From: Candidatus Magasanikiibacteriota bacterium
GTDB taxonomy: Bacteria > Patescibacteriota > Patescibacteriia > Magasanikbacterales > GWA2-37-8
Direction: 5' to 3'
Assembly: GCA_023246725.1 (NCBI GenBank)
Contig: JAHFHV010000001.1
Location: forward strand, 13,618-77,617
Length of the DNA stretch: 64,000 nucleotides
Shown here: piece by piece, positions 3,100-40,187 of the stretch
How positions within the stretch are numbered: position 1 is the stretch's first letter
Layout: every line of letters begins with the position of its first letter
Program-made: the position numbers and the translations under genes
The notes under the pieces: generated by a model
Told to the model about the DNA's origin: nothing
Seen by the model: the letters and a program-made list of their open reading frames with translations, nothing else
Databases searched by the model: none

Positions 3100-5565
3100 T
3101 TAGATAATAGTGACACTCGCCACTTTATCACCCTCTTCTTTAAAGCGCATCAGGCGAACACCCTGGGTGGCTCTCCCGGTGGTGTTAATTGATTTGAAAG
3201 GTAGGCGGATGACCTGGCCTTTGCCACTCATCATCATTAAGTCTTGGTTTTCCGCATTGGCGCGATTAATAACCTTGGCGTATACAATCGGGCCGGTTTT
3301 GGCGGTAACCTCGGCGGTTTTAATACCACTGCCGCCGCGGCCTTGCACTTTGTATTCATTTAGTTCGGTACATTTGCCAAGGCCATTAGCGCCCACGGTG
3401 AGGAATTCTAGGCTTTGGTTTTTGGGGTCCACAATATCCATGCCAATCACCGTGTCATCACTCCGAAGGCGCATGCCGCGTACGCCGGCAGCCGTGCGGC
3501 CCATACTGCGGACGTCTTTTTCTTTAAAGCGGATGGCCTGGCCACCTTTGGTCGCAATCATAAGTTCATCATTTCCAGTCGATGGCTTGACCCATTCTAA
3601 ATTATCATCGCCCTTAAGTTTAAGAGCGATAAGCCCACTCCGGCGAACATTAGCAAAATCGGCTAGTTCAGTTTTTTTGATGAGTCCTTTGGTTGTGACC
3701 ATCACTAAGTGTTTAATTTTTTCAAGGTTACTCATGGGCAGGAGTGCCGTAATGGTTTCGTTCGGGGCCAATTGTAAAAAGTTAACGAGGGCCTGGCCTT
3801 TGGCGGTGCGGCTGCCTTGGGGAATATCATAGGCCATGAGCTGAAATACCCGGCCGCGGCTGGTGAAAAACAAAATATTGTCGTGCGTGCTCACCGTCAG
3901 GAGTTGGTCCACGGATTCGTCTTCTTTGGTGGTAACACCAATCACGCCTTTGCCGCCGCGCGATTGCTGTTTGAAGGTGTCGGGCGGCAGGCGTTTAATG
4001 TAGCCATCGGTGGTTGTCATTACCATGGTTGGTTCGTTGGGGATCAGGTCTTCGGTAGTAAATTCTTTCACACCGTGGGCAATAATTTGGGTCTTGCGGT
4101 CATTGCCGTATTTCTCTTTGAGCGTTATGGTCTCGGTTTTTACAATGCCGAGAATCTTGCTCTCGGACGCTAAAATTGATTCCAATTCTTTAATGATGAA
4201 TTTTTTTTCTTTTAATTCATCTTCAATTTTTTGGCGCTCTAAGTTGGCTAACTGTTGCAGGCGCATTTCCAAAATCGCCGTAGTTTGCCGGTCGGTGAAT
4301 TTGAATTTTTTCATGAGTTCAACTTTGGCATCGTCTTTGTCTTTGGCCGCCCGGATGGTTTTGATAACCAAATCGATTTTATCCAGCGCCATACTTAAGC
4401 CTTCTAAAATATGGGCGCGGTCTTTATTTTTGACCAAATCAAACTCGGTGCGGCGGCGAATAACCACCTGGCGGTGCTTAATAAATTCCTCTAAAATATT
4501 TTTGATGTTGAGGACGCGCGGCTGAATGCCGTCGACCAGGGCCAGCATGTTGTAGTGGAAGGTGGTTTGAAGAGCGGTGTGGTTGTAGAGTTGGTTTAGA
4601 ATCTTTTTGGGATAAGCGTCTTTTTTCATTTCTATCACCACGCGCACACCGTCTTTATTAGATTCATCCCGAATGTCTTTAATACCTTCAATTTTTTTCT
4701 CTTGGACCAGGCCCGCAATTTTCTCAATCAGTTCCGCCTTGTTCACTTGATAAGGCATTTCGGTAACAATTATGCGGTACTGTCCATTTTTTGTTTCCTC
4801 AATTTCGGCTTTGGCGCGCATTACCACGCCGCCCCGGCCGGTCGCAAAGGCCGCCGCGATATCTTTTTTGCCATACACAATGCCGCCGGTCGGGAAATCT
4901 GGCCCCTGGATAATTTCATCCAGGTCTTCAATGGTAGTTTTGGGTTTGTCAATTAAGGCCACCACGCCGTCACAGAGTTCGCGCAGATTATGTGGGGGGA
5001 TAGACGTGGCCATACCAACCGCGATGCCGACCGTGCCGTTTAAGAGCAGATTGGGAACTTGCGTTGGTAAGACAGTTGGTTCTTGGTGTGAGCCGTCGTA
5101 GTTCGGGATGAAGTTAACGGTATCTTTGTCGATATCGGCGAGCATCTCTTCGGCCAGGGCGGTGAGGCGGGCTTCGGTGTAGCGCATGGCCGCGGCGCTG
5201 TCGCCATCCATACTGCCAAAGTTACCTTGGCCATTTACTAATTGGTGACGCATAGCAAAATCTTGGGCCATGCGAACCATGGAATCGTAAATGGCAGCGT
5301 CGCCGTGGGGGTGGTATTTGGCCATCACCTCACCCACCACGTGCGCGGATTTGCGAAAACGCGCGGTGTGGCGCAGGCCCAAATTGCCCATAGCATAGAG
5401 GATGCGGCGGTGCACGGGCTTGAGGCCGTCGCGTACATCGGGGAGCGCGCGCGAAATAATAACGCTCATGGCGTATTCCAAATATGATTGTTTCACTTCG
5501 TCCACAATCGGGGTGGGAGTAAGGCGGCCGATGTTGTTTTTAATAAGAGGAAGTTGTTCGGACAT
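3100..5565 (-). CDS. gyrA: DNA gyrase subunit A
   Basis: [28 protein letters not shown], active-site Tyr region, C-terminal beta-pinwheel repeats; 821 aa. Confidence 0.92.
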
Positions 5566-13177: not shown

Positions 13178-13269
13178 GTCATTCTGACCCCGCACTTGCG
13201 GGGGAAGAATCTCTGTCCAATTGGTCAAATAACGACCGACAGAGATCCTTCACTGCGTTCAGGATGACA
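13178..13269. repeat. MITE family 1 copy
   Basis: gtcattctgaccc...gttcaggatgaca. Confidence 0.8.
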
Positions 13270-23230: not shown

Positions 23231-25858
23231 CTATTTTTTCATAAGTAAACTCCACACAGTATCGCGCTCCAAAGGCTGGCTAGGAATTTTTCCGCCGTTG
23301 CTCGCCGGAACCATATCGCTCCCATCCTGCCAGACCGGCCTCCAACCATCCGGAAAAATAATTTGGCTATCAAATTTGCTCTCGGAGCCGGATTGACGCC
23401 CCACGACTAATTGGTATGAAGCGGCCTGTGCACTTGTCGATCGCTCGTTTTGAAAGGCGGTAAAGGGAAGTTTATAGACGAATTCAATGCGGCTGGTTGC
23501 CCCCGGCTCCGTAATTATCCAATTTCCAAAGGCTGTCTTGCCAAACTCTTCGGTAACGCGCGTGCCGGTACGCGCCTCAATGCCGATCTCGGTTTCTTTG
23601 GCAGTTAGGGCGGCGTCGGTTACGGCCCAGGGGTCGGGAACGCGAAAGAGCGTCTCGTTTGGCCAGCTAAAACCGCTGACCGAAATAAGCGCGCTGCCTT
23701 TGGGAACATATAGGCGGAGATAATCTATATTGGCAGTACCGTACAATTTTTCGCCAAAGGCACCAGTATGCTCGCGCATAATGGTGACGGTATTGGTAAT
23801 GGTGCCATTTTCTTCAACCACTGCCTGGTGGCTGATATTTTGTTTAATTTTACTATCGGATTTTTCCCCCTGGATATTGGTATTAATGGCCATGAGAAAA
23901 TCTTGGTCCGCTCGCGTTGTGGGCACAGCTCCGCTCCAGCCTAAGGCAACCAAGGCGCTCTCGGCCTCTTCGTCGGTATTATAGAGCTGAATTTCTTTTT
24001 GCTCCAGCGCGTTTTCAAGCTGGTGTAAAACTCCCAGGAGCGAGCCCAGCGGGGCTTTTTGAATAGTGTCCAAAAGATTAGGCGCCAGATCAGCCAGAAT
24101 TTGTTTGGGAGTATTGGCAGTTTTCTCCGGGCCGGTTTCAATAATTTTTTCTAAGATGGGGAGTGCGCTCTCGGCCGAGAGTGTGAGCGAACGGGAGTTA
24201 TCGGTTAAAGGGCCAAGCACACTAAGAAGCCTTTCCAACACCGTTCCATTAATCGCAATCACCCCATCCAAGGTTACGCCGCGGCTATGGCGGTAAAACC
24301 ACAGCATCTTGTCCGCGCTGGCGGGGAAGTCCGGAAACCAGTTAGCGTCCTGGAATTCCCAGCGCTTGTTGGCAAGGAGCAGAGGCGTGGGCGGTTTTAC
24401 GTACGCGTTGAGCTGTCCTTGCAAATCGTAGCTGCCGCCGGGGGGCAATTTAAAGCTTAACAGCTGGCCATCTTTTACCTCAATTACGGCAAAACTGCCC
24501 ATAAAGCCGCCAGTCGGTCGCAATTCGTGCTGGTTTTGGAAAACCAGCAGAAAGCGCCGCCGGCCAGTCTGCCCTAAAAATTCTTTCAGGGGCCCCGCCA
24601 GCTCTGTAATTACTTCCAGGTCGTGGCTGATCGCATTCACCACTTTTTTAACATTGGCAAAATCGGCCTGATGCTCTGCCGGCAGCACGCTGATATCCAC
24701 GCGCGCTAATTTTTTCTGGGCCGCCTGGTAATGAGGCAAGGTGGCTTTGACGCCAGCCAGAATTGGTTCCAAGTGTCCAAGGAGCGTAGCGCCCGGCGCT
24801 ATGTTTCCTTGGCCAAGAGACGAAAAGAGATAGGAATTTCCGAGAGCAATATCTGCGCCGGCCAGCAGTACGTTTTCTTTACTGGTAATATTGTTGCCTA
24901 CTCTGGGGAGCATCGCGGCCACGGTGGCCAAAAATCCATGCTTGGTTTGCAGCAGGCTCGCGGCTTTGTTAAGCTGCTTAAGGGCAAGGTCTGTAGTTTC
25001 TTCGGCTAAGGAAATATTACCGCCTCTTAAGGCGTCGGTGGAATTTTTTAACGAAGCAAACCCGGCTAAACTTTGCGCGGTAATTTCGTTAGTATCATCT
25101 TTCAGGCTGGTAACATAACCAAAACTGGCGCGCGGCAGAATAATAACCAAGACAATAACAGCGAGCGCCCAGCGGAGTTTAAAATTTTGTTTTGTAATGA
25201 GGCGAGAAAGCAGTGTGTCATTTCGAGTCCTATGGTCCCGCGGCGAGCGGGATCCGCGATCCTTCGGGATCAGGACAATCCCCTCGTTTTCAGAAAGAGC
25301 TCTGTAATCAGTGGGATCGCCACGCCCCGCTTGAGCGGGGCTCGCGATGACAATAGCACGCTTCACCACCTTCTCTTTTTTGTCATGCCACCACTCACCG
25401 CACGCAGTTACCATTTGTTGTAAGTGTGATATTGGTTTTAAAGAATCAAACCTACTAGGACTTGCTTGGTCTTGATCTAAATCTTGATCGACACTTTGTG
25501 CAAACAATCTTTCGGGCGCACTCGGCAGTTTATGATAATAATGGTAGAGCGGATTTTGAGAATCAACGGGAGCCGCGGCGGTAACATTTTTCCACACCTC
25601 TTTTTTATGGTGGCGCATGTCAATAACATAGGGCGAGGCGGCGGACGCGTGACTAACATGGTGCACAAAAAATTTCAGCGGCGTTCTTGAAACAGGCGCT
25701 GGCGGAGGCGTCGTTGAAGTTGGAGCGCTGGGAAGGACAACAACAGGGCAAGTGGCTTTATTGTGGCCAGCTTTTTTACAGCTGCCGCAGCGGCGCAGTT
25801 GGCGAGAGGGTGATTCTTTGGACATGAAAAACAAACAATGGGAATGGAAAATTCTCAT
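23231..25858 (-). CDS. Hypothetical large single-pass membrane protein with N-terminal CCHC zinc-knuckle
   Basis: CGSCKKAGHNKATC (C-X2-C-X4-H-X4-C), TM WALAVIVLVIIL, about 640-aa extracytoplasmic domain; alternative start 25825; possible leaderless (tataat 5 nt before ATG 25858). Confidence 0.55.
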   Translation of the reverse strand: MRIFHSHCLFFMSKESPSRQLRRCGSCKKAGHNKATCPVVVLPSAPTSTTPPPAPVSRTPLKFFVHHVSHASAASPYVIDMRHHKKEVWKNVTAAAPVDSQNPLYHYYHKLPSAPERLFAQSVDQDLDQDQASPSRFDSLKPISHLQQMVTACGEWWHDKKEKVVKRAIVIASPAQAGRGDPTDYRALSENEGIVLIPKDRGSRSPRDHRTRNDTLLSRLITKQNFKLRWALAVIVLVIILPRASFGYVTSLKDDTNEITAQSLAGFASLKNSTDALRGGNISLAEETTDLALKQLNKAASLLQTKHGFLATVAAMLPRVGNNITSKENVLLAGADIALGNSYLFSSLGQGNIAPGATLLGHLEPILAGVKATLPHYQAAQKKLARVDISVLPAEHQADFANVKKVVNAISHDLEVITELAGPLKEFLGQTGRRRFLLVFQNQHELRPTGGFMGSFAVIEVKDGQLLSFKLPPGGSYDLQGQLNAYVKPPTPLLLANKRWEFQDANWFPDFPASADKMLWFYRHSRGVTLDGVIAINGTVLERLLSVLGPLTDNSRSLTLSAESALPILEKIIETGPEKTANTPKQILADLAPNLLDTIQKAPLGSLLGVLHQLENALEQKEIQLYNTDEEAESALVALGWSGAVPTTRADQDFLMAINTNIQGEKSDSKIKQNISHQAVVEENGTITNTVTIMREHTGAFGEKLYGTANIDYLRLYVPKGSALISVSGFSWPNETLFRVPDPWAVTDAALTAKETEIGIEARTGTRVTEEFGKTAFGNWIITEPGATSRIEFVYKLPFTAFQNERSTSAQAASYQLVVGRQSGSESKFDSQIIFPDGWRPVWQDGSDMVPASNGGKIPSQPLERDTVWSLLMKK
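25217..25352. repeat. Two adjacent MITE family 1-type palindromic elements inserted in-frame in CDS 23231..25858
   Basis: gtcatttcgag...ggatcaggaca and ...gccacgccccgcttgagcggggctcgcgatgaca; the latter matches half-copy at 48035-48072; encodes linker between Zn-knuckle and TM. Confidence 0.7.
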
Positions 25859-25993
25859 TCTTTATTATACACTACTTATGCACAATTCCCAAGCCTTGTT
25901 TTAGTGTTGCCATTTCTAGGCGCGGGGAGTATTATTATAGCGGTAGCGGTGTTAGATATTGCGAAGATATTAAGAGAATATTAAAAAAATATT

Positions 25994-27205
25994 ATGTTAT
26001 ATTTAAGCGAGCTTTTAAAACGCCCGATTCGCGACAGTTCGGACACCAAAGTCGGGCGGCTTGTGGATATTGTGATTAGTCCCCGGGCCGGGGAGTATCC
26101 GCCGCTCTTGTTTTTGGTTATGGAAGCAAAGCGGACTGAACAGCGGATTTTTATTTCGTATGCCTATGTGGCTAATGTAAGCCGCGAAGAAATTGCCTTA
26201 AAACATTTGTTTAAAACCATTCCCGAAGGCGCTCCAGCCGACGGAGCGGTGTGGTTGTGCCGCGATATTTTGGACGAACAGATTGTGGATGTGGAAGGCG
26301 CGCGGGTGGTACGCGTCAACGACTTGCGTCTGGGGACTTTTGAAAATCAATTATGCGTGCTGGGGATTGACGTGAGTTTTAAAGGGCTCCTGCGCCGTCT
26401 TGGCCTCTCGGGTATGGATGTGTTTGAGATGTGGCCAGTTAATTTAATTGACTGGCGGAAAGCGCAACTCGTCAAGGGGGTATTAAAGCTGGATACGATT
26501 TTAAAAGATTTGGTAAAAATCCACCCGGCTGACCTGGCTAACATTGTGGAAGATTTGAGTTTGAAGCAAGGTGGCAAACTGGTGAGAAGTTTGGATGCCG
26601 CGGCCGCGGCGCATGTTTTGGAAGAACTGGATCCGCATATTCAAAAAACTCTGGTGCATTATTTGGGGCCGGAGCGGGCCTCCCAGATTGTAGCGCAAAT
26701 GTCGGTTGATGAGACGGTTGATCTGTTAAAAATGCTGCCCAAACAAGAGGCAACGGAATTTTTGTCGTACATCCAGGGCAGCAAGCTGGCCAAGGTTAAA
26801 AAATTGATCAGTTACTCCGAAGACAGCGCCGGCGGGCTTATGACTACTGAGCACGTGGCGGCCCGGCCGGATTGGACCGTACTTCAGACCATTGACGAGG
26901 TACGCCGCTTATCGGACCGCATGCGTTCCATTGTGCATGTGTATATAACCGATGATGAGGGTTATTTTAAAGGTTCGGTGTCGCTCCGGCGCCTGCTGTT
27001 GGCGCGCCCGGGCGACGCGCTTAAAAATATTATGAAACGCCTGCCCAAACGCAACGTATTAAAAATTGATGATTCGATTAATAAAGTAATTAAAATGATG
27101 ACTAAATACGATTTGTACACCGCGGCCGTTTTGGACAAAGAGCATAAACTGGTGGGAGTCGTAACGATTGACGACGTGATGCGACACCTGGTGCCAAATG
27201 CCTAA
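25994..27205 (+). CDS. Soluble PRC-barrel + MgtE-N + CBS-pair protein, no membrane domain
   Basis: MgtE N-domain-like acidic helical region, tandem CBS; lacks MgtE TM helices. Confidence 0.65.
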   Translation: MLYLSELLKRPIRDSSDTKVGRLVDIVISPRAGEYPPLLFLVMEAKRTEQRIFISYAYVANVSREEIALKHLFKTIPEGAPADGAVWLCRDILDEQIVDVEGARVVRVNDLRLGTFENQLCVLGIDVSFKGLLRRLGLSGMDVFEMWPVNLIDWRKAQLVKGVLKLDTILKDLVKIHPADLANIVEDLSLKQGGKLVRSLDAAAAAHVLEELDPHIQKTLVHYLGPERASQIVAQMSVDETVDLLKMLPKQEATEFLSYIQGSKLAKVKKLISYSEDSAGGLMTTEHVAARPDWTVLQTIDEVRRLSDRMRSIVHVYITDDEGYFKGSVSLRRLLLARPGDALKNIMKRLPKRNVLKIDDSINKVIKMMTKYDLYTAAVLDKEHKLVGVVTIDDVMRHLVPNA

Positions 27206-27228
27206 ACACGAGACACAAGAAAACCAGT

Positions 27229-27324
27229 TGTCATTCTGAGCAAAGCGAAGAATCTCTGTCCATCATTCACTTACAATAGAGCAATTGAACGAGACAGAGA
27301 TCCTTCACTGCGTTCAGGATGACA
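27229..27324. repeat. MITE family 1 copy
   Basis: gtcattctgagcaaagcgaagaatctc ... gttcaggatgaca. Confidence 0.8.
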
Positions 27325-27355
27325 GAAAAAAAGCGTTCCGCAGTCCAAAATAAAT

Positions 27356-28618
27356 ATGCCTCAAAAATTAAAAAAACACTGGCCCCGCATCGCGCTCCTT
27401 TTGGCCGTGGTTGGGCCTGGACTCATTACCGCGGTGGCTGATAACGATGCCGGCGGCGTGGCTACCTACACGGTGGCCGCTTCTTTGTTTGGCATGGCCT
27501 CGCAGTATTTTATTATCCCCACCACCCTGCTTTTGGCGGTAACGCAAGAAATTGGCGCCCGCCTGGCGATTGTTACTGGCAAGGGGTTGGGCGGCCTTAT
27601 TCGCGAACGGTTTGGAGTGAAAATCGCGGCCCTGGTCTTTCTCCTCTATTTGATTGTGAACGAAGGCGTGGTCCTGCAAAATATCAGCGGGCTTAAAGCG
27701 GCCCTCCAATTATTTAACGCGCCGTGGCAATGGGGTCTTATTATCACGTGTATTATTCTCACTATCGCCATTATCAAACTCAATTTTCGCCGTCTCCAGC
27801 GGGTTTTTTTAATCATGATTTTGTTCTACCTCGCGTATGTGGTATCGGCCTTTCTCTCGCACCCAGACTGGAGCGAAGCCTTGCAGGAGAGTTTTATTTT
27901 TCCGCGTAAAATAAATATTTGGAATATTAATTATTGGTTCACGCTTATCGCCGTCCTTGGCACCACCATTACGGCTTGGGGGCAGTTTTTTGTGAGCAGT
28001 TTTATTGTCGATAAAGGAATTCACTCTAATCAGCTTGGCGGCGAGCGGGTAGAAATTTTTGGCGGCGCGGTGATTACCAATTTTATTTCCTGGATGATCG
28101 CGCTGTCGGTTACGTACACACTCTTTGCCCACAGCATTAAAGTTACCGACGGCTTTGCCGCGGCCTTGGCCATTAAGCCGTTCGTCGGCGAATTCGCCGG
28201 CACTCTATTCGCGGCGGGCCTGTTTGGCGCGTCGCTTTTGGGCCTCACGATTGTGCCTTTGGCCACGGCCTATGTGTTTACCGAATTGTTTGGCTATGAG
28301 CGCACCTTGAACGCTAGTTTTAAAAAAGGCCGTCCGTTTTATATTTTTTTCATTCTCCAATTATTGGTTGGCCTCTTCGCGGCGCTCATTCCGTCAGTGA
28401 ATTTGTTCCGCGTCACGCTCTACGCCGATTATTTAAACGGCGCCATGCTCCCGTTGATTTTTTATTTTTTAATCACGTTCTCGGAAGACAAAAGCATTAT
28501 GGGCGAAAAGCACGTAGTGAAGGGCTGGATGAGCTGGGTGTTACGTTTTTCCGCGGTGGTGATTATGGCCGCGGTGGCGGTAACATTTTTTGGGAAGCTT
28601 TTGGGATGGGGAGCGTAA
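27356..28618 (+). CDS. NRAMP/SLC11-family divalent cation transporter, divergent (DPGN and MPH motifs absent)
   Basis: GPGLITAVADNDAGGVATYT...EIGARLAIVTGKGL aligns to Nramp TM1-TM2; TM6 reads GLTIVPLATAY. Confidence 0.7.
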   Translation: MPQKLKKHWPRIALLLAVVGPGLITAVADNDAGGVATYTVAASLFGMASQYFIIPTTLLLAVTQEIGARLAIVTGKGLGGLIRERFGVKIAALVFLLYLIVNEGVVLQNISGLKAALQLFNAPWQWGLIITCIILTIAIIKLNFRRLQRVFLIMILFYLAYVVSAFLSHPDWSEALQESFIFPRKINIWNINYWFTLIAVLGTTITAWGQFFVSSFIVDKGIHSNQLGGERVEIFGGAVITNFISWMIALSVTYTLFAHSIKVTDGFAAALAIKPFVGEFAGTLFAAGLFGASLLGLTIVPLATAYVFTELFGYERTLNASFKKGRPFYIFFILQLLVGLFAALIPSVNLFRVTLYADYLNGAMLPLIFYFLITFSEDKSIMGEKHVVKGWMSWVLRFSAVVIMAAVAVTFFGKLLGWGA

Positions 28619-28666
28619 CGTGAAGTGTTGTGCTGTTTTAGTGTTGTGCTTTACCGTGGAGCGCTA

Positions 28667-28717
28667 TTGACAAAATATCCGAATTATAGTATAATTAGGA
28701 TAGTATAGTATCCTAAT
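28667..28717 (+). promoter_or_regulatory. Consensus promoter ttgaca-17-tataat plus perfect palindrome ttaggatagtatagtatcctaa (operator candidate)
   Basis: Read directly upstream of 28729 CDS. Confidence 0.55.
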
Positions 28718-28728
28718 TTAGCTTAAAT

Positions 28729-29853
28729 ATGCTAATTAAACGCATAATTCAGCCAAAAATTGAAGCTTCTCTATTTAAAGGCAAAGCCATTATTATTTAT
28801 GGCGCCCGCCAGGTAGGCAAAACCACCTTGGTTAAAGAAATTCAAAAGAAATTTGTGGCCGCGTCCCTTTACCTGAATTGTGATGAACCAGACATCCGCG
28901 CGGCCCTTACGAACACCACCTCCACCGAGCTCAAGGCGTATTTTGGGACTAAAAAAATAATTATTATTGATGAAGCCCAGCGCGTGGAAAACATCGGCCT
29001 GACGCTTAAACTGCTCGTGGATGCTTTTCCCGAATTGCAAATCATCGCGACCGGATCTTCGTCGTTTGAATTGTCCAACCGCATTGTGGAGCCTTTAACC
29101 GGGCGCGCCTTTGAATTTTTGTTATATCCTTTTTCCAGCGAAGAGCTTGGCGAACAGTACGCGCCCCTGGAAATCAAACGTCTGTTGGAACAGCGGCTTA
29201 TTTATGGGATGTACCCGGAAATTGTGGAACAAACGGAAAATATTGCCACGCGCTTAAAAAACATCGCCCGCAGTTACGCGTACAAAGATATTTTATTCTA
29301 CCAGCATATCCGCAACCCGGATATTTTAGAAAAATTACTGTCGGCCTTGGCTTTGCAAATTGGCCATGAGGTATCGTACAGCGAGCTGGCCAAGCTCCTT
29401 AGCATTAACCGCGTTACCGTGGAAAACTACGTGGCAATTTTAGAAAAAGCGTTTATTATTTTTCGCCTGCGCCCGTACAGCACGAATCCGCGCAAGGAAC
29501 TGGCCAAACTGCGAAAAATTTATTTTTACGACACCGGCATTCGCAATGCTCTCATTAATAACCTTAACCCGCTTAATTTGCGCAGCGATGCTGGCGCGCT
29601 GTGGAAGAATTTTTGGATTCTGGAACGCCTAAAAAATAACCATAATCATGGCCGTGACGCGCGCGCTTATTTTTGGCGTAATTATCAGAAGCAAGAAATT
29701 GATTATATTGAGGAAGCGAATGGGAAGCTGGCGGCCTTTGAATGCAAATGGTCGGTAACCAAACCAGCGCGAGCGCCCTCTGGCTGGCGCGCCCTCTACC
29801 CGGGTGCCTCGTTTACCGCGGTACACCCGGGTAACTTTTTAGAAATTAAATAG
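28729..29853 (+). CDS. AAA+ ATPase, DUF4143 type
   Basis: Walker A GARQVGKTTL, Walker B IIIDEAQ; paralog of 52389..53633. Confidence 0.7.
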   Translation: MLIKRIIQPKIEASLFKGKAIIIYGARQVGKTTLVKEIQKKFVAASLYLNCDEPDIRAALTNTTSTELKAYFGTKKIIIIDEAQRVENIGLTLKLLVDAFPELQIIATGSSSFELSNRIVEPLTGRAFEFLLYPFSSEELGEQYAPLEIKRLLEQRLIYGMYPEIVEQTENIATRLKNIARSYAYKDILFYQHIRNPDILEKLLSALALQIGHEVSYSELAKLLSINRVTVENYVAILEKAFIIFRLRPYSTNPRKELAKLRKIYFYDTGIRNALINNLNPLNLRSDAGALWKNFWILERLKNNHNHGRDARAYFWRNYQKQEIDYIEEANGKLAAFECKWSVTKPARAPSGWRALYPGASFTAVHPGNFLEIK

Positions 29854-29918
29854 GTAGTGTGCCCATTTGCCTTTTCGTAAGAATGAACTTACAAGACAAG
29901 AAACAGATTTTGTCTAGC

Positions 29919-29962
29919 TTGACAAAGGGTACACCTAGGTGTACACTACAGGTACACCTTAT
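29919..29962 (+). promoter_or_regulatory. Promoter ttgaca-17-tacact overlapping palindromic operator gtacacctaggtgtac + repeat aggtacacc
   Basis: Perfect 16-bp palindrome within spacer/-10; typical TA autoregulation layout. Confidence 0.55.
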
Positions 29963-29979
29963 TTTTTAATAGCAAACCT

Positions 29980-30249
29980 ATGAAACCTGTCTCTAAAGCC
30001 CTTAAAACCAAACTCATTGGCGTTAAGGATTTTCGCCAAAACCTGGCGCATTATTATGCGCAGGGAGTCAAAAACGGCTTAAGCTACATTGTTACCAATC
30101 GTGACCGGGCCATTTTTGAAGTCAAGCCGCTGTCTAAAAAAGAAGCCATGCTTAAAAAGTTGGCGGCGGATATCGCGCACGCCGAACAGCAGGTGCGCGA
30201 GGGCAAGGTGTATACCTTGGAACAGGTCAGACAGCGCCTAGGTATTTAA
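29980..30249 (+). CDS. Type II antitoxin (Phd/YefM-like, inferred)
   Basis: 89 aa, immediately upstream of RelE/ParE toxin; weak family resemblance. Confidence 0.5.
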   Translation: MKPVSKALKTKLIGVKDFRQNLAHYYAQGVKNGLSYIVTNRDRAIFEVKPLSKKEAMLKKLAADIAHAEQQVREGKVYTLEQVRQRLGI

Positions 30250-30259
30250 TGATGGATAT

Positions 30260-30529
30260 ATGGAGGTCTTCAGATTACATCTTACCCAAGACGCGGAAGA
30301 TGATTTGGCTAACCTTGACCAGACGATTGCCTCTCGAATAGCGGATAAACTCCAGTGGTTCGTCTCCCAAGAAAATCCACTGTATTTTTCTAGACGCCTT
30401 TCCGGCTTTTTGGGCAAGTATCGTTTTCGCGTAGGGGACTATCGTATTATCTTCAAAGTTGATTATCGAGGCACCATCACTATTCTCGTCATTCTCCGCA
30501 TCCGGCACCGCCGCGAGGTGTACGATTAA
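30260..30529 (+). CDS. Type II toxin, RelE/ParE family
   Basis: YRFRVGDYRIIFKVDYRGTITILVILRIRHRREVY matches RelE/ParE C-terminal signature. Confidence 0.75.
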   Translation: MEVFRLHLTQDAEDDLANLDQTIASRIADKLQWFVSQENPLYFSRRLSGFLGKYRFRVGDYRIIFKVDYRGTITILVILRIRHRREVYD

Positions 30530-30699
30530 AGAATGTTAAAAACAAAGTCGTTCTCTATCCAAAACGGGCGAGTTTTTACAAGCGGTGCTTACCGATGAAG
30601 AAATGAAGCAGGTTATTGGCGGAGAAGCGGACGAGGCAAGATTATTAAAAAGCGCTAAAGACGCGTGGCGTCCAGGGAGCAAAGAATAAATCCCGATTA

Positions 30700-31821
30700 T
30701 TATTGAATCAGGACCGGCTGTGACAGGCCGGTTTTAAATTCTTCGTAGCGGTTATCCACGTACTGCTTTAGATTGGTTTTAAAATTAGCCACGCTGAATT
30801 TTTCGGCCTGGGATTTTATGTTAGCGCTGTTCCAAGCGGTATGGTCAAAATGGAGCACAGCGTCTAACAGCGATTCCCAGGATTGCTTTTGAAAAAATAC
30901 GCCGGTTTCGCCCGGCACAACCGTTTCGGTGGCGCCGCCTTCGCCGTAGGCAATTACCGGCCGCCCGGCGGCCATGGTTTCTACCGGCGTAATCCCAAAA
31001 TCTTCTAGTTGGGGGTGGATAAAGGCTTTGGCGTGGCGCAACAGTTCACCCTTGGCTTCATCCGAAATCCGGCCGACAAATTCTATGTTGGGTTTGGCGT
31101 GTTTTTGCAGATGCTCTAGCTCTGGGCCAGTGCCAAAAATTTTTAAGGGGTACCGCAATCGATTGAAAGCCTGAACCACCATATCCAGCCGCTTGTAAGG
31201 GACAAGGCGCCCGCCGGCAACAAAATAATCTTCCACACTGGCGCTCGGAGAGAATAAATGCGTGTCAGTGGGCGGAAAAATAATATCGCTTTCGCGGCGG
31301 TAATATTTATTGATGCGGTATCGCACGGTGGCGGAATTGGCCACAAAATGGTCCACGCGGTCGGTGCTCATTTTGTCCCACAGGCGCAGACGCGAAATAA
31401 CACCAGGCAGAAGCGCTTTGACAGCGGGATTATAGGGCAAATCGGCCACGTAGGTATGCGTGTCGCTCCACAAGTAGCGCGCCGGGGTGTGGCAATAGGA
31501 AATATGGAGCGTGTTCGGACTGGTTAAGACGCCTTTGGCAAAGCCGCTGGTGGAAGAAACTACGACATCAAAGTCCGATAGATTAAAGCGTTCGGTGGCG
31601 GTGGGCATCAGTGGCAGATACCATTGAAAATGAGATTTGATAAAGGGCATTTTACTAAGCCATGATTCACGAATATTTTCGGCCGGGAAATCTTTAATTT
31701 TAGTTTTGTCGTGGAACAACAAAAAAATTGGCGCTTCTGGCCACAGTTCGCTCATGGCTTTTAAAACGCGTTCGGCGCCGCCGTCTTGGGCCAGGTAATC
31801 GTGAACTAAGGCTAACCGCAT
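30700..31821 (-). CDS. Glycosyltransferase family 4 (GT-B, group 1)
   Basis: EFGITPVETMAAGRPVIA motif. Confidence 0.75.
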   Translation of the reverse strand: MRLALVHDYLAQDGGAERVLKAMSELWPEAPIFLLFHDKTKIKDFPAENIRESWLSKMPFIKSHFQWYLPLMPTATERFNLSDFDVVVSSTSGFAKGVLTSPNTLHISYCHTPARYLWSDTHTYVADLPYNPAVKALLPGVISRLRLWDKMSTDRVDHFVANSATVRYRINKYYRRESDIIFPPTDTHLFSPSASVEDYFVAGGRLVPYKRLDMVVQAFNRLRYPLKIFGTGPELEHLQKHAKPNIEFVGRISDEAKGELLRHAKAFIHPQLEDFGITPVETMAAGRPVIAYGEGGATETVVPGETGVFFQKQSWESLLDAVLHFDHTAWNSANIKSQAEKFSVANFKTNLKQYVDNRYEEFKTGLSQPVLIQ

Positions 31822-36337: not shown

Positions 36338-36343
36338 ACAAGT

Positions 36344-36895
36344 GTTTATAGCAGATGATCGCCCGCTCAACGCGCAAGCGCCTGAGCGGGAGGAAAGTCC
36401 GAACACCCTCAGTTTTTTCGCTACCTGCTGAGAAAAGGATAGTGGGTAACACCCACCGTTCCGATGGCAACGTCGGAAAAGGGACAGTGGCACAGAGACA
36501 ATACTACTTTGTCGCGCCGCAGCCTTGGCGAAGGCGGAACCATAAGAATCCCCGCCTTCGCCAAAGCTATGGCGCGGCAAAGGAAAGGTGAAAAGTGTAT
36601 GGGAGTTTTGGTTCTTAAGACCAAAGCTACGATACTCCGTCCCGTAGCAATGCGGGATGTGTGCTAAACCCTGTCTGGTGCAAGAGCAGCGTTTTCGTCG
36701 CAAGGCGAATTCGTAAAGTTCGCTCGCATTGCCTCGCCGAAGCCCCGCAACTGCGGGGCGAAGGCAGGCTTGATCCGGTTAGCAATAACCGGGCTAGATA
36801 AATGATCATCACCACGGATTCTTTGCACGGATCAACACAGATATTAGTGAAGATCAGTGTAAAAAATCCGTGGTACAAAATTCGGCTTATCGCTG
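36344..36895 (+). ncRNA. rnpB: RNase P RNA (bacterial type A-like) with expansion hairpins
   Basis: P4 halves gaGGAAAGUCCGaac (bulged U) and acaaaaUUCGGCUUAucg, GGGUAAcaCCCACC, cUAGAUaAAUGAuc; ends in terminator hairpin 36896-36934. Confidence 0.65.
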
Positions 36896-36963
36896 TAAAC
36901 CGCGCACCACGACAAAATTTGTCGTGGTGCGTTTGTTAGTCATAAGAAGTTGGGGACTGGCTA

Positions 36964-40103: not shown

Positions 40104-40187
40104 GGTGCGGACGGAGGGACTCGAACCCTCAAGGATTGCTCCATACGCTTCTGAGACGTACGCGTATACCAGTTCCGCCACGTCCGC
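40104..40187 (-). tRNA. tRNA-Leu (anticodon CAG) with long variable arm
   Basis: Manual fold: acceptor GCGGACG/CGTCCGC, anticodon stem TACGT/GCGTA loop CTCAGAA, 13-nt variable arm, T-arm GAGGG-TTCGAGT-CCCTC, 3' ACC(A). Confidence 0.8.

Follow-up and report, generated by a model that had tools for sequence, protein, structure and literature searches.

NRAMP-related Mg2+ transporters (NRMTs) constitute a fourth class of prokaryotic Mg2+ importers. They are defined by a DxxG motif on helix 1 and a TxxA/T motif on helix 6, which replace DxxN and A/CxxM (Ramanadane et al., 2022; PMC8806188). The group had been named NrmT by Shin et al. (2014; PLoS Genet, PMC4072509), who noted that most NrmT genes have an MgtE-like neighbour and proposed for it either "cytoplasmic feedback regulation of transport" or a chaperone role. 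Our search of a full-text library found no paper after 2014 on the MgtE-like partner, none joining MgtE with a PRC-barrel and none placing an NRMT in the candidate phyla radiation. Here we describe such a pair of genes in a 64,000-nucleotide stretch of contig JAHFHV010000001.1 from a Candidatus Magasanikiibacteriota bacterium (the window, meaning the whole stretch). Both the pairing and the idea of feedback were published in 2014, and the locus adds one more case to an arrangement that is already known and not yet explained. The trans-regulation suggested in an earlier note on this DNA, which reached it independently, is plausible but thus not new, since Shin et al. (2014) had proposed it.

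The two genes lie on the same strand and are separated by a 150-bp spacer; both open reading frames (ORFs) were found exactly where the earlier note had placed them.

25994-27205, plus strand: partner gene, an ORF of 403 amino acids encoding a soluble PRC / beta-domain / MgtE_N / CBS-pair protein
27356-28618, plus strand: NRMT-clade SLC11 transporter gene, an ORF of 420 amino acids

We regard annotation as an operon of an NRMT and an MgtE-like partner as secure. The closest described arrangements are the pairs of NrmT and "MgtE-like fragment" in Clostridium acetobutylicum (Ca_c0685/Ca_c3329) and Acidobacterium capsulatum, which likewise have an adjacent homologue of the MgtE cytoplasmic domain (PMC4072509). 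Unlike these pairs, the window locus lacks an M-box, carries a palindromic repeat between the genes and belongs to a candidate-phyla-radiation lineage, and its partner is a single gene, whereas that of Ca_c0685 is split (PMC4072509). The closest database relatives of both window proteins come from metagenome-assembled genomes of Candidatus Magasanikbacteria and other Patescibacteria.

Domains were called with Pfam profiles on both proteins, with NCBIfam models as a second source, and structural relatives were sought with phmmer against all PDB sequences, using Escherichia coli MntH as a reciprocal control. The 420-amino-acid protein matches the Pfam Nramp family (PF01566, E 6.6e-58; its residues 35-385 cover positions 1-353 of the 357-position profile), and its NCBIfam scores to MntH/Nramp models are all below threshold. 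Its best PDB match is EleNRMT from Eggerthella lenta (7QIA; also 7QIC, 7QJI and 7QJJ; Ramanadane et al., 2022, PMC8806188), with homology over residues 6-408 (E 6e-72, 246 bits), as against best scores of 41-49 bits, none above 49 bits and E 4e-12 or weaker, to canonical Nramp structures. E. coli MntH shows the reverse, scoring 177-449 bits against canonical members and 77 bits against EleNRMT. A neighbour-joining distance tree of 78 diverse full-length representatives, built without bootstrap, places the window protein in a small subclade within the DAGG/TTI[TA]PW group that includes EleNRMT, far from E. coli MntH. On sequence grounds the 420-amino-acid protein is an NRMT-clade SLC11 transporter and not a canonical MntH. 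The earlier note had proposed an NRMT-like member of the NRAMP family and had named clustering with canonical MntH as the outcome contrary to its reading; because the protein groups with EleNRMT, this came out negative in the PDB scores, the MntH control and the tree alike.

The residues expected to form the metal site point the same way. Conservation was assessed among the 120 closest clusters (61-100% identity) and in a diverse alignment of 81 sequences.

27446-27457, plus strand: helix-1 metal site D31-A-G-G34 (DxxG for DPGN), aligned to EleNRMT D55-A-G-G58
27962-27979, plus strand: helix-6 metal site T203-T-I-T206-A207-W208 (TxxT for AxxMPH), aligned to EleNRMT T224-T-I-A227-P-W229
28427-28429, plus strand: D358 on helix 10, a subclade-specific Asp placed by alignment at the position of EleNRMT Q379

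The protein shares PF01566, the LeuT fold and the helix-1 Asp with the canonical Mn2+/Fe2+:H+ symporters (E. coli MntH, DraNramp, ScaDMT), whereas the canonical DPGN and A/CxxMPH motifs are missing, with DAGG and TTITAW at the aligned positions, so that the earlier note's statement that DPGN is replaced and MPH absent holds. D31-A32-G33-G34 is preceded by D29-N30, and D31 and G34 each occur in 120/120 close homologues (D in 77/81 and G in 64/81 of the diverse sequences). At helix 6, T203 is found in 119, T206 in 120, A207 in 108 and W208 in 120 of the 120 close homologues. The helix-6 segment itself was mislocated in the earlier note: GLTIVPLATAY aligns to EleNRMT residues ~318-327, about 95 residues past helix 6, and the true segment is G202-T-T-I-T-A-W-G-Q210, which aligns to G223-TTIAPWMM of EleNRMT and ATIMPH of E. 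coli MntH. As in EleNRMT, the first helix-6b His is a Trp (W208) and the second a residue that cannot be protonated (V213); the helix-3 Glu position is N109. These three replacements fit proton-uncoupled transport as described for EleNRMT. In EleNRMT, mutation of T224 abolishes Mg2+ but not Mn2+ transport, and mutation of Q379 strongly impairs transport (PMC8806188).

Around this signature the window protein departs from EleNRMT at several positions (Q379 to D358, E133 to N109, the helix-6 Pro to A207, and M-M to G209-Q210), and these differences are kept across the 120 closest clusters and seldom seen in diverse NRMTs.

27680-27682, 27974-27976 and 28427-28429, plus strand: codons of the site-variant residues N109, A207 and D358 in the NRMT gene

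Near the metal site the closest clusters carry D29-N-D-A-G/S/A-G34 and T-T-[VI]-T-A-W-G-Q, with N or D at position 109 and D (103/120) or N (17/120) at position 358; the diverse alignment has Pro at position 207 in 74/81 sequences and Gln at position 358 in 54/81. The variant thus amounts to helix-3 Glu to Asn/Asp, helix-6 Pro to Ala/Leu and helix-10 Gln to Asp/Asn, and the close relatives with N109, A207 and D358 are labelled candidate-phyla-radiation bacteria by their sequence sources. We rejected a strict charge swap between helices 3 and 10 (E to N, Q to D) because Asp stands at both positions in 18 close homologues, which makes this a subclade trait and not clean covariation.

The partner protein comprises four domains.

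25994-26203, plus strand: PRC-barrel domain, residues 1-70 (Pfam PF05239 at residues 2-61, 28.4 bits with the cutoff at 21.2; beta strands in the AlphaFold2 model)
26246-26473, plus strand: second beta domain, residues ~85-160, with the motif RD-LDxQIVDxxGxRVVRVND...GxLRRLG (AlphaFold2 strands at 96-126; predicted local distance difference test score, pLDDT, of 80-92 for the block)
26489-26824, plus strand: MgtE_N helical domain, residues 166-277 (Pfam at 176-277, E 8.9e-24; alignment to 2yvy)
26828-27190, plus strand: CBS pair, residues 279-399 (Pfam CBS, E 1.5e-14)

The C-terminal two thirds closely resemble the cytosolic part of Thermus thermophilus MgtE (2YVX, 2YVY, 2ZY9), whose N domain and CBS pair give the best PDB sequence match (E 1.7e-32) and superpose with a TM-score of 0.85 (target-normalised). 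In the AlphaFold2 model, built from a 70-sequence alignment (mean pLDDT 85.7, with a low-confidence linker at residues 162-170), Foldseek places the last 230-245 residues on MgtE cytosolic domains with target-normalised TM-scores of 0.85-0.90 and root-mean-square deviations of 1.8-2.6 Å. The last residue, 403, comes five positions after the CBS pair, and neither the sequence end nor the model holds a plug helix, membrane helices or the five-helix pore with its Mg1 site. The NCBIfam mgtE model TIGR00400 is matched in its first half only (profile positions 20-249 of 450; 150.5 against a cutoff of 232.75). Without plug helix or pore, and with this partial match, the partner is not an MgtE channel. 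The earlier note's description of an MgtE N domain and CBS pair with a PRC barrel and without a pore is borne out by Pfam, the 2yvy alignment and the model. Its terms "split" and "channel analog" are loose; an NRMT is a LeuT-fold carrier, and the partner is not a broken MgtE.

Relative to MgtE the partner carries ~165 extra N-terminal residues, the PRC barrel and the second beta domain, for which no mention was noticed in the available part of PMC4072509. Profile comparison of the N-terminal region with the PDB gave only weak matches, four of five to PRC-barrel proteins (E 0.016-0.66). The second beta domain has no Pfam match and no counterpart in MgtE, and it is the best-conserved part of the family: of 26 alignment columns with conservation of 90% or more among 58 diverse partners, 12 fall within residues 94-154 (D94, Q96, D99, G102, R107, V108, N109, D110, G131, R134, R135 and W154). 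A PRC-like start motif prompts the guess that the partner holds tandem PRC barrels, and it stays a guess because the hhalign similarity of the second domain to the first is not significant (E 0.042, probability 1.25%), so that no internal duplication was detected. Relatives of ~400 amino acids form at least 120 clusters, with 50-84% identity over essentially the full length. The partner forms a family of its own, with two additional beta domains at the N terminus. Two partial sequences from the 50%-identity representative library, P0274 and P0383, have CBS and Nramp domains in one reading frame, joined by a ~95-residue linker in P0274 and with CBS running directly into the first transmembrane helix in P0383; they could be rare natural partner-transporter fusions or artefacts of frameshift or gene calling.

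The Mg2+ sites of T. thermophilus MgtE (PMC5882242) were carried over to the partner through the phmmer alignment to 2yvy and scored in 121 close and 58 diverse partners.

Mg4: MgtE D91/D247, partner D239/D394; conserved in 112/121 and 121/121 close and in 45/58 and 47/58 diverse partners
Mg6: MgtE D95, partner D243; conserved in 117/121 close and 57/58 diverse partners
Mg5: MgtE D226/D250, partner D373/R397; D or N at position 373 across the family, a non-acidic R at 397
Mg7: MgtE E59, partner H207; not kept here or in the close relatives, which mostly have K, Q, H or R; 34/58 diverse partners have E
Mg2/Mg3: MgtE E258/D259, no equivalent; the partner ends before these positions

As mapped by this alignment, the sites that clamp the MgtE N domain to the CBS pair are kept and those that couple to the pore are lost.

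The pairing itself was surveyed in 83 loci whose NRMTs are 33-79% identical to the window transporter. Three genome loci came from a scan of genome contigs with the single window protein as query; 80 metagenome loci were retrieved with a 16-sequence alignment and the helix-1 and helix-6 motifs as search patterns, so that motif conservation in these 80 is circular and the adjacency result alone is independent. Partners were detected by scanning six-frame ORFs with hidden Markov models built from the partner family, and counts were limited to the 63 loci with at least 1300 bp of upstream DNA. An MgtE_N gene, which also encodes CBS with the single exception of a truncated ORF, lies upstream on the same strand in 54/63 loci and is within 400 bp of the NRMT gene in 47 of those 54; in several, the reading frames of the two genes abut or share a few bases. 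The partner was never downstream or on the opposite strand in the surveyed loci, and nearly all complete partner genes include the N-terminal module. No partner was seen in the available DNA of nine loci, some of which have too little upstream DNA for an arrangement with an intervening gene. The reverse look-up found an Nramp gene after the partner gene in 5/5 cases. Adjacency is conserved far beyond chance, and the non-conserved adjacency that the earlier note held to speak against its proposal was not what we found. For comparison, no MgtE-like neighbour is annotated in a 4-kb stretch containing E. coli mntH.

Order and orientation are kept despite intervening genes. About six soil-metagenome loci (including L019, L026, L028, L036 and L050) have one conserved gene of ~360 amino acids between partner and NRMT, with gaps of ~1.2-1.5 kb; by eye it looked glycosyltransferase- or CgeB-like. 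Locus L090 has a small DUF559 gene (4549-4920) in the same place. In L031, whose transporter is 41% identical to that of the window, an M-box Mg2+ riboswitch (RF00380; 2430-2605, plus strand, 135.5 bits) lies directly 5' of the partner gene, which matches the observations of Shin et al. (2014; PMC4072509).

We put at about one in two the chance that the window holds an NrmT/NRMT operon of the published type, in a Magasanikbacteria-like bacterium of the candidate phyla radiation, in which an Mg2+-sensing partner throttles an uncoupled Mg2+/Mn2+ carrier. By analogy with EleNRMT, the carrier would import Mg2+, and also Mn2+, along the membrane potential without proton coupling, through a widened metal site formed by D31, G34, T203, T206 and probably D358. 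The C-terminal two thirds of the partner would act as an MgtE-type module with a clamp, in which the Mg4 and Mg6 acids hold the N domain to the CBS pair, and through this clamp the protein may sense cytosolic Mg2+, possibly together with nucleotide. The N-terminal beta domains, which are specific to the partner, would relay the signal to the transporter and lower uptake when Mg2+ is plentiful. The clade of the transporter, the domain layout and the conserved adjacency on one strand are direct results; the substrate, contact between the two proteins and the sense of the regulation are inferred. Because the best-conserved region is the non-MgtE beta domain, this is most likely the part that contacts the transporter.

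Several observations weigh against this reading. The MgtE-like gene was unnecessary for complementation by Clostridium NrmTs, and the A. capsulatum transporter, which acted mainly as an Mn2+ importer, gained nothing from its co-expressed partner (PMC4072509). EleNRMT alone carries both Mg2+ and Mn2+ in proteoliposomes (PMC8806188). In the partner, the Mg2/Mg3 ligands that link to the plug helix are absent, Mg7 is lost and Mg5 is half kept, and the window subclade departs from EleNRMT at three site-proximal positions (N109, A207 and D358). A very stable hairpin stands between the two genes. No M-box (RF00380) match passed the gathering threshold anywhere in the window, and none appeared within 25700-27500 at E values up to 5; among 39 related loci scanned the only one is that of L031, the other 38 having none; an M-box upstream of NrmT pairs is a feature of a subset only (PMC4072509).

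A more detailed version, with the odds somewhat against it, takes the partner as a regulatory subunit that is obligate in vivo. Its second beta domain (RD-LDxQIVDxxGxRVVRVND...RRLG) would dock on the cytosolic face of the NRMT, the Mg4/Mg6 clamp would close at high cytosolic Mg2+ and lock the carrier, and within the window subclade N109, A207 and D358 would shift selectivity further towards Mg2+. Such a system would place a carrier of the LeuT fold under trans control of a sensor module taken over from a channel family unrelated to it.

It is unlikely, but less so than the other alternatives, that the partner is tied to the NRMT without being an Mg2+-gated inhibitor, and serves as a nucleotide or energy sensor via its CBS pair, as a metallochaperone taking over the imported ion, or as an assembly or stability factor docking through its PRC-like domains. 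CBS pairs commonly bind adenosine nucleotides. Many of the Foldseek matches to the partner are CBS proteins with bound nucleotide, ATP is also a ligand of MgtE (5x9g), a chaperone role was raised by Shin et al. (2014; PMC4072509), and roles of this kind would suit a protein whose best-conserved region is a non-MgtE beta domain and which has lost several MgtE Mg2+ sites. Such roles leave the conserved Mg4 pair and Mg6 residue hard to explain without divalent-cation binding at the interface of N domain and CBS pair, and in some lineages an M-box governs the operon as a whole (L031; PMC4072509), which ties both genes to Mg2+.

Rather improbable, in our view, is that the transporter is physiologically an importer of Mn2+ or another transition metal, with a partner that answers to Mn2+ or whose role has nothing to do with Mg2+. 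The A. capsulatum NrmT, which also has an adjacent MgtE-like gene, fully rescued an Mn2+-transport mutant, and an Mg2+-transport mutant at millimolar Mg2+ only (PMC4072509). EleNRMT carries Mn2+ as well (PMC8806188), the window locus has no M-box, and the extra carboxylate D358 and the missing helix-6 Pro of the subclade mean that selectivity cannot be read off EleNRMT. Yet the conserved T203 corresponds to EleNRMT T224, which is needed for Mg2+ and not Mn2+ transport, and the site lacks the Met whose thioether favours transition metals; the Mg4/Mg6 carboxylates of MgtE persist in the partner, and the relative in L031 is under M-box control.

That the adjacency is incidental and the two genes functionally unrelated, as the 150-bp separation with its stable hairpin and the 9/63 loci without a partner might suggest, is effectively refuted by the strict order and orientation in 54/63 loci from very different environments with transporters 33-79% identical, by the 5/5 reverse look-ups, by the order kept where an unrelated gene intervenes, and by the independent report of the pairing in 2014 (PMC4072509).

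The near-universal MgtE-like neighbour of NRMTs has been without a demonstrated function since it was noticed in 2014, and the window locus leaves that picture unchanged. It extends the pair to bacteria labelled candidate phyla radiation by their sequence sources, and the comparative data sharpen the question by quantifying the linkage (54/63) and defining which MgtE Mg2+ sites survive. Modestly new, testable specifics are the conserved second beta domain, the retained Mg4/Mg6 ligands and the N109/A207/D358 site; the linkage count, the surviving Mg2+ sites and the conserved beta domain together point to concrete mutants and constructs with which trans-regulation could be probed.

The boundaries of the putative operon were examined by consensus scans, and the sites below are consensus matches only.

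25907-25935, plus strand: promoter-like site TTGCCA-17-TATTAT (10/12 matches), in the 135-bp divergent intergenic region 5' of the partner gene
28612-28644, plus strand: terminator-like hairpin (28612-28634) and T-rich tail, overlapping the NRMT stop codon
28667-28695, plus strand: perfect promoter consensus for the gene after NRMT

No plus-strand promoter-like site was found by the scan in the 150-bp spacer. We assume from this layout that the partner and NRMT genes form a two-gene operon flanked by promoter-like and terminator-like sites; co-transcription remains an assumption because a very stable hairpin separates the two genes.

This hairpin belongs to a family of palindromic elements, resembling repetitive extragenic palindromes (REP) or miniature inverted-repeat transposable elements (MITEs), that is dispersed in the window.

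27229-27324, unstranded: palindromic element (REP/MITE-like), a 96-nt imperfect palindrome with 32-nt arms that are 81% complementary
Centres near 13256, 16087, 23185, 27277, 45038 and 49786: six palindrome copies of ~95-125 nt each

The spacer copy folds with a minimum free energy of -45.6 kcal/mol (z = -5.9) and is followed on the plus strand by an A-run and no T-run; 220-nt stretches around each copy give -46 to -77 kcal/mol. The arm motif occurs six times in the window at up to three mismatches, against zero expected, and a looser scan finds eight arms making up six hairpin elements. The family termini are TGTCATYCTGA...TCAGGATGACA and the inner arms GAAGRATCTCTGTC/GACAGAGATCCTTC. The label "MITE" used in the earlier note is reasonable and unproven: the inverted-repeat arms and six dispersed copies are there, and no target-site duplication was seen when the flanks of all six copies were read by eye. 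The closest relative, L004, has an 89-bp spacer that lacks the palindrome, an observation compatible with insertion and with loss alike; the spacers of other relatives are 2 and 58 bp. Matches of the spacer hairpin to microRNA families were discarded, as they lie far below gathering scores and merely reflect a long hairpin.

The partner-NRMT pair sits within a conserved neighbourhood of envelope-glycan genes (window 23231-31821; also L088, L089, L091 and L092, all candidate-phyla-radiation genomes), in the order DUF4012, glycosyltransferase family 4 (GT4; in some), partner, NRMT, GT4 and Bac_transf sugar transferase. A functional link of the pair to these genes is possible, for example through a metal need of the transferases. 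In the relatives L004, L089, L091 and L092 the GT4 gene is directly 3' of the NRMT gene, whereas the window has between them an extra AAA_14/DUF4143 ATPase gene (28729-29853), and an 89-amino-acid ORF with a ParE-toxin-family gene after it, which are possibly an antitoxin/toxin pair (29980-30529). A PDDEXK_3 gene lies beyond GT4 in the window.

In four other loci a 16S rRNA gene on the other strand closely follows the NRMT gene (L008 6718-8244, L009 6062-6298, L010 5293-6972 and L013 6096-7616, all minus strand), and tRNA genes stand a short way upstream of the partner gene; the L010 match spans 1680 nt, which suggests an insertion. Further along the window, a class A bacterial RNase P RNA match at 36343-36905 (plus strand, 134 bits) extends over 563 nt on a 367-position model, which suggests large insertions, and a tRNA lies at 40106-40187 on the minus strand.

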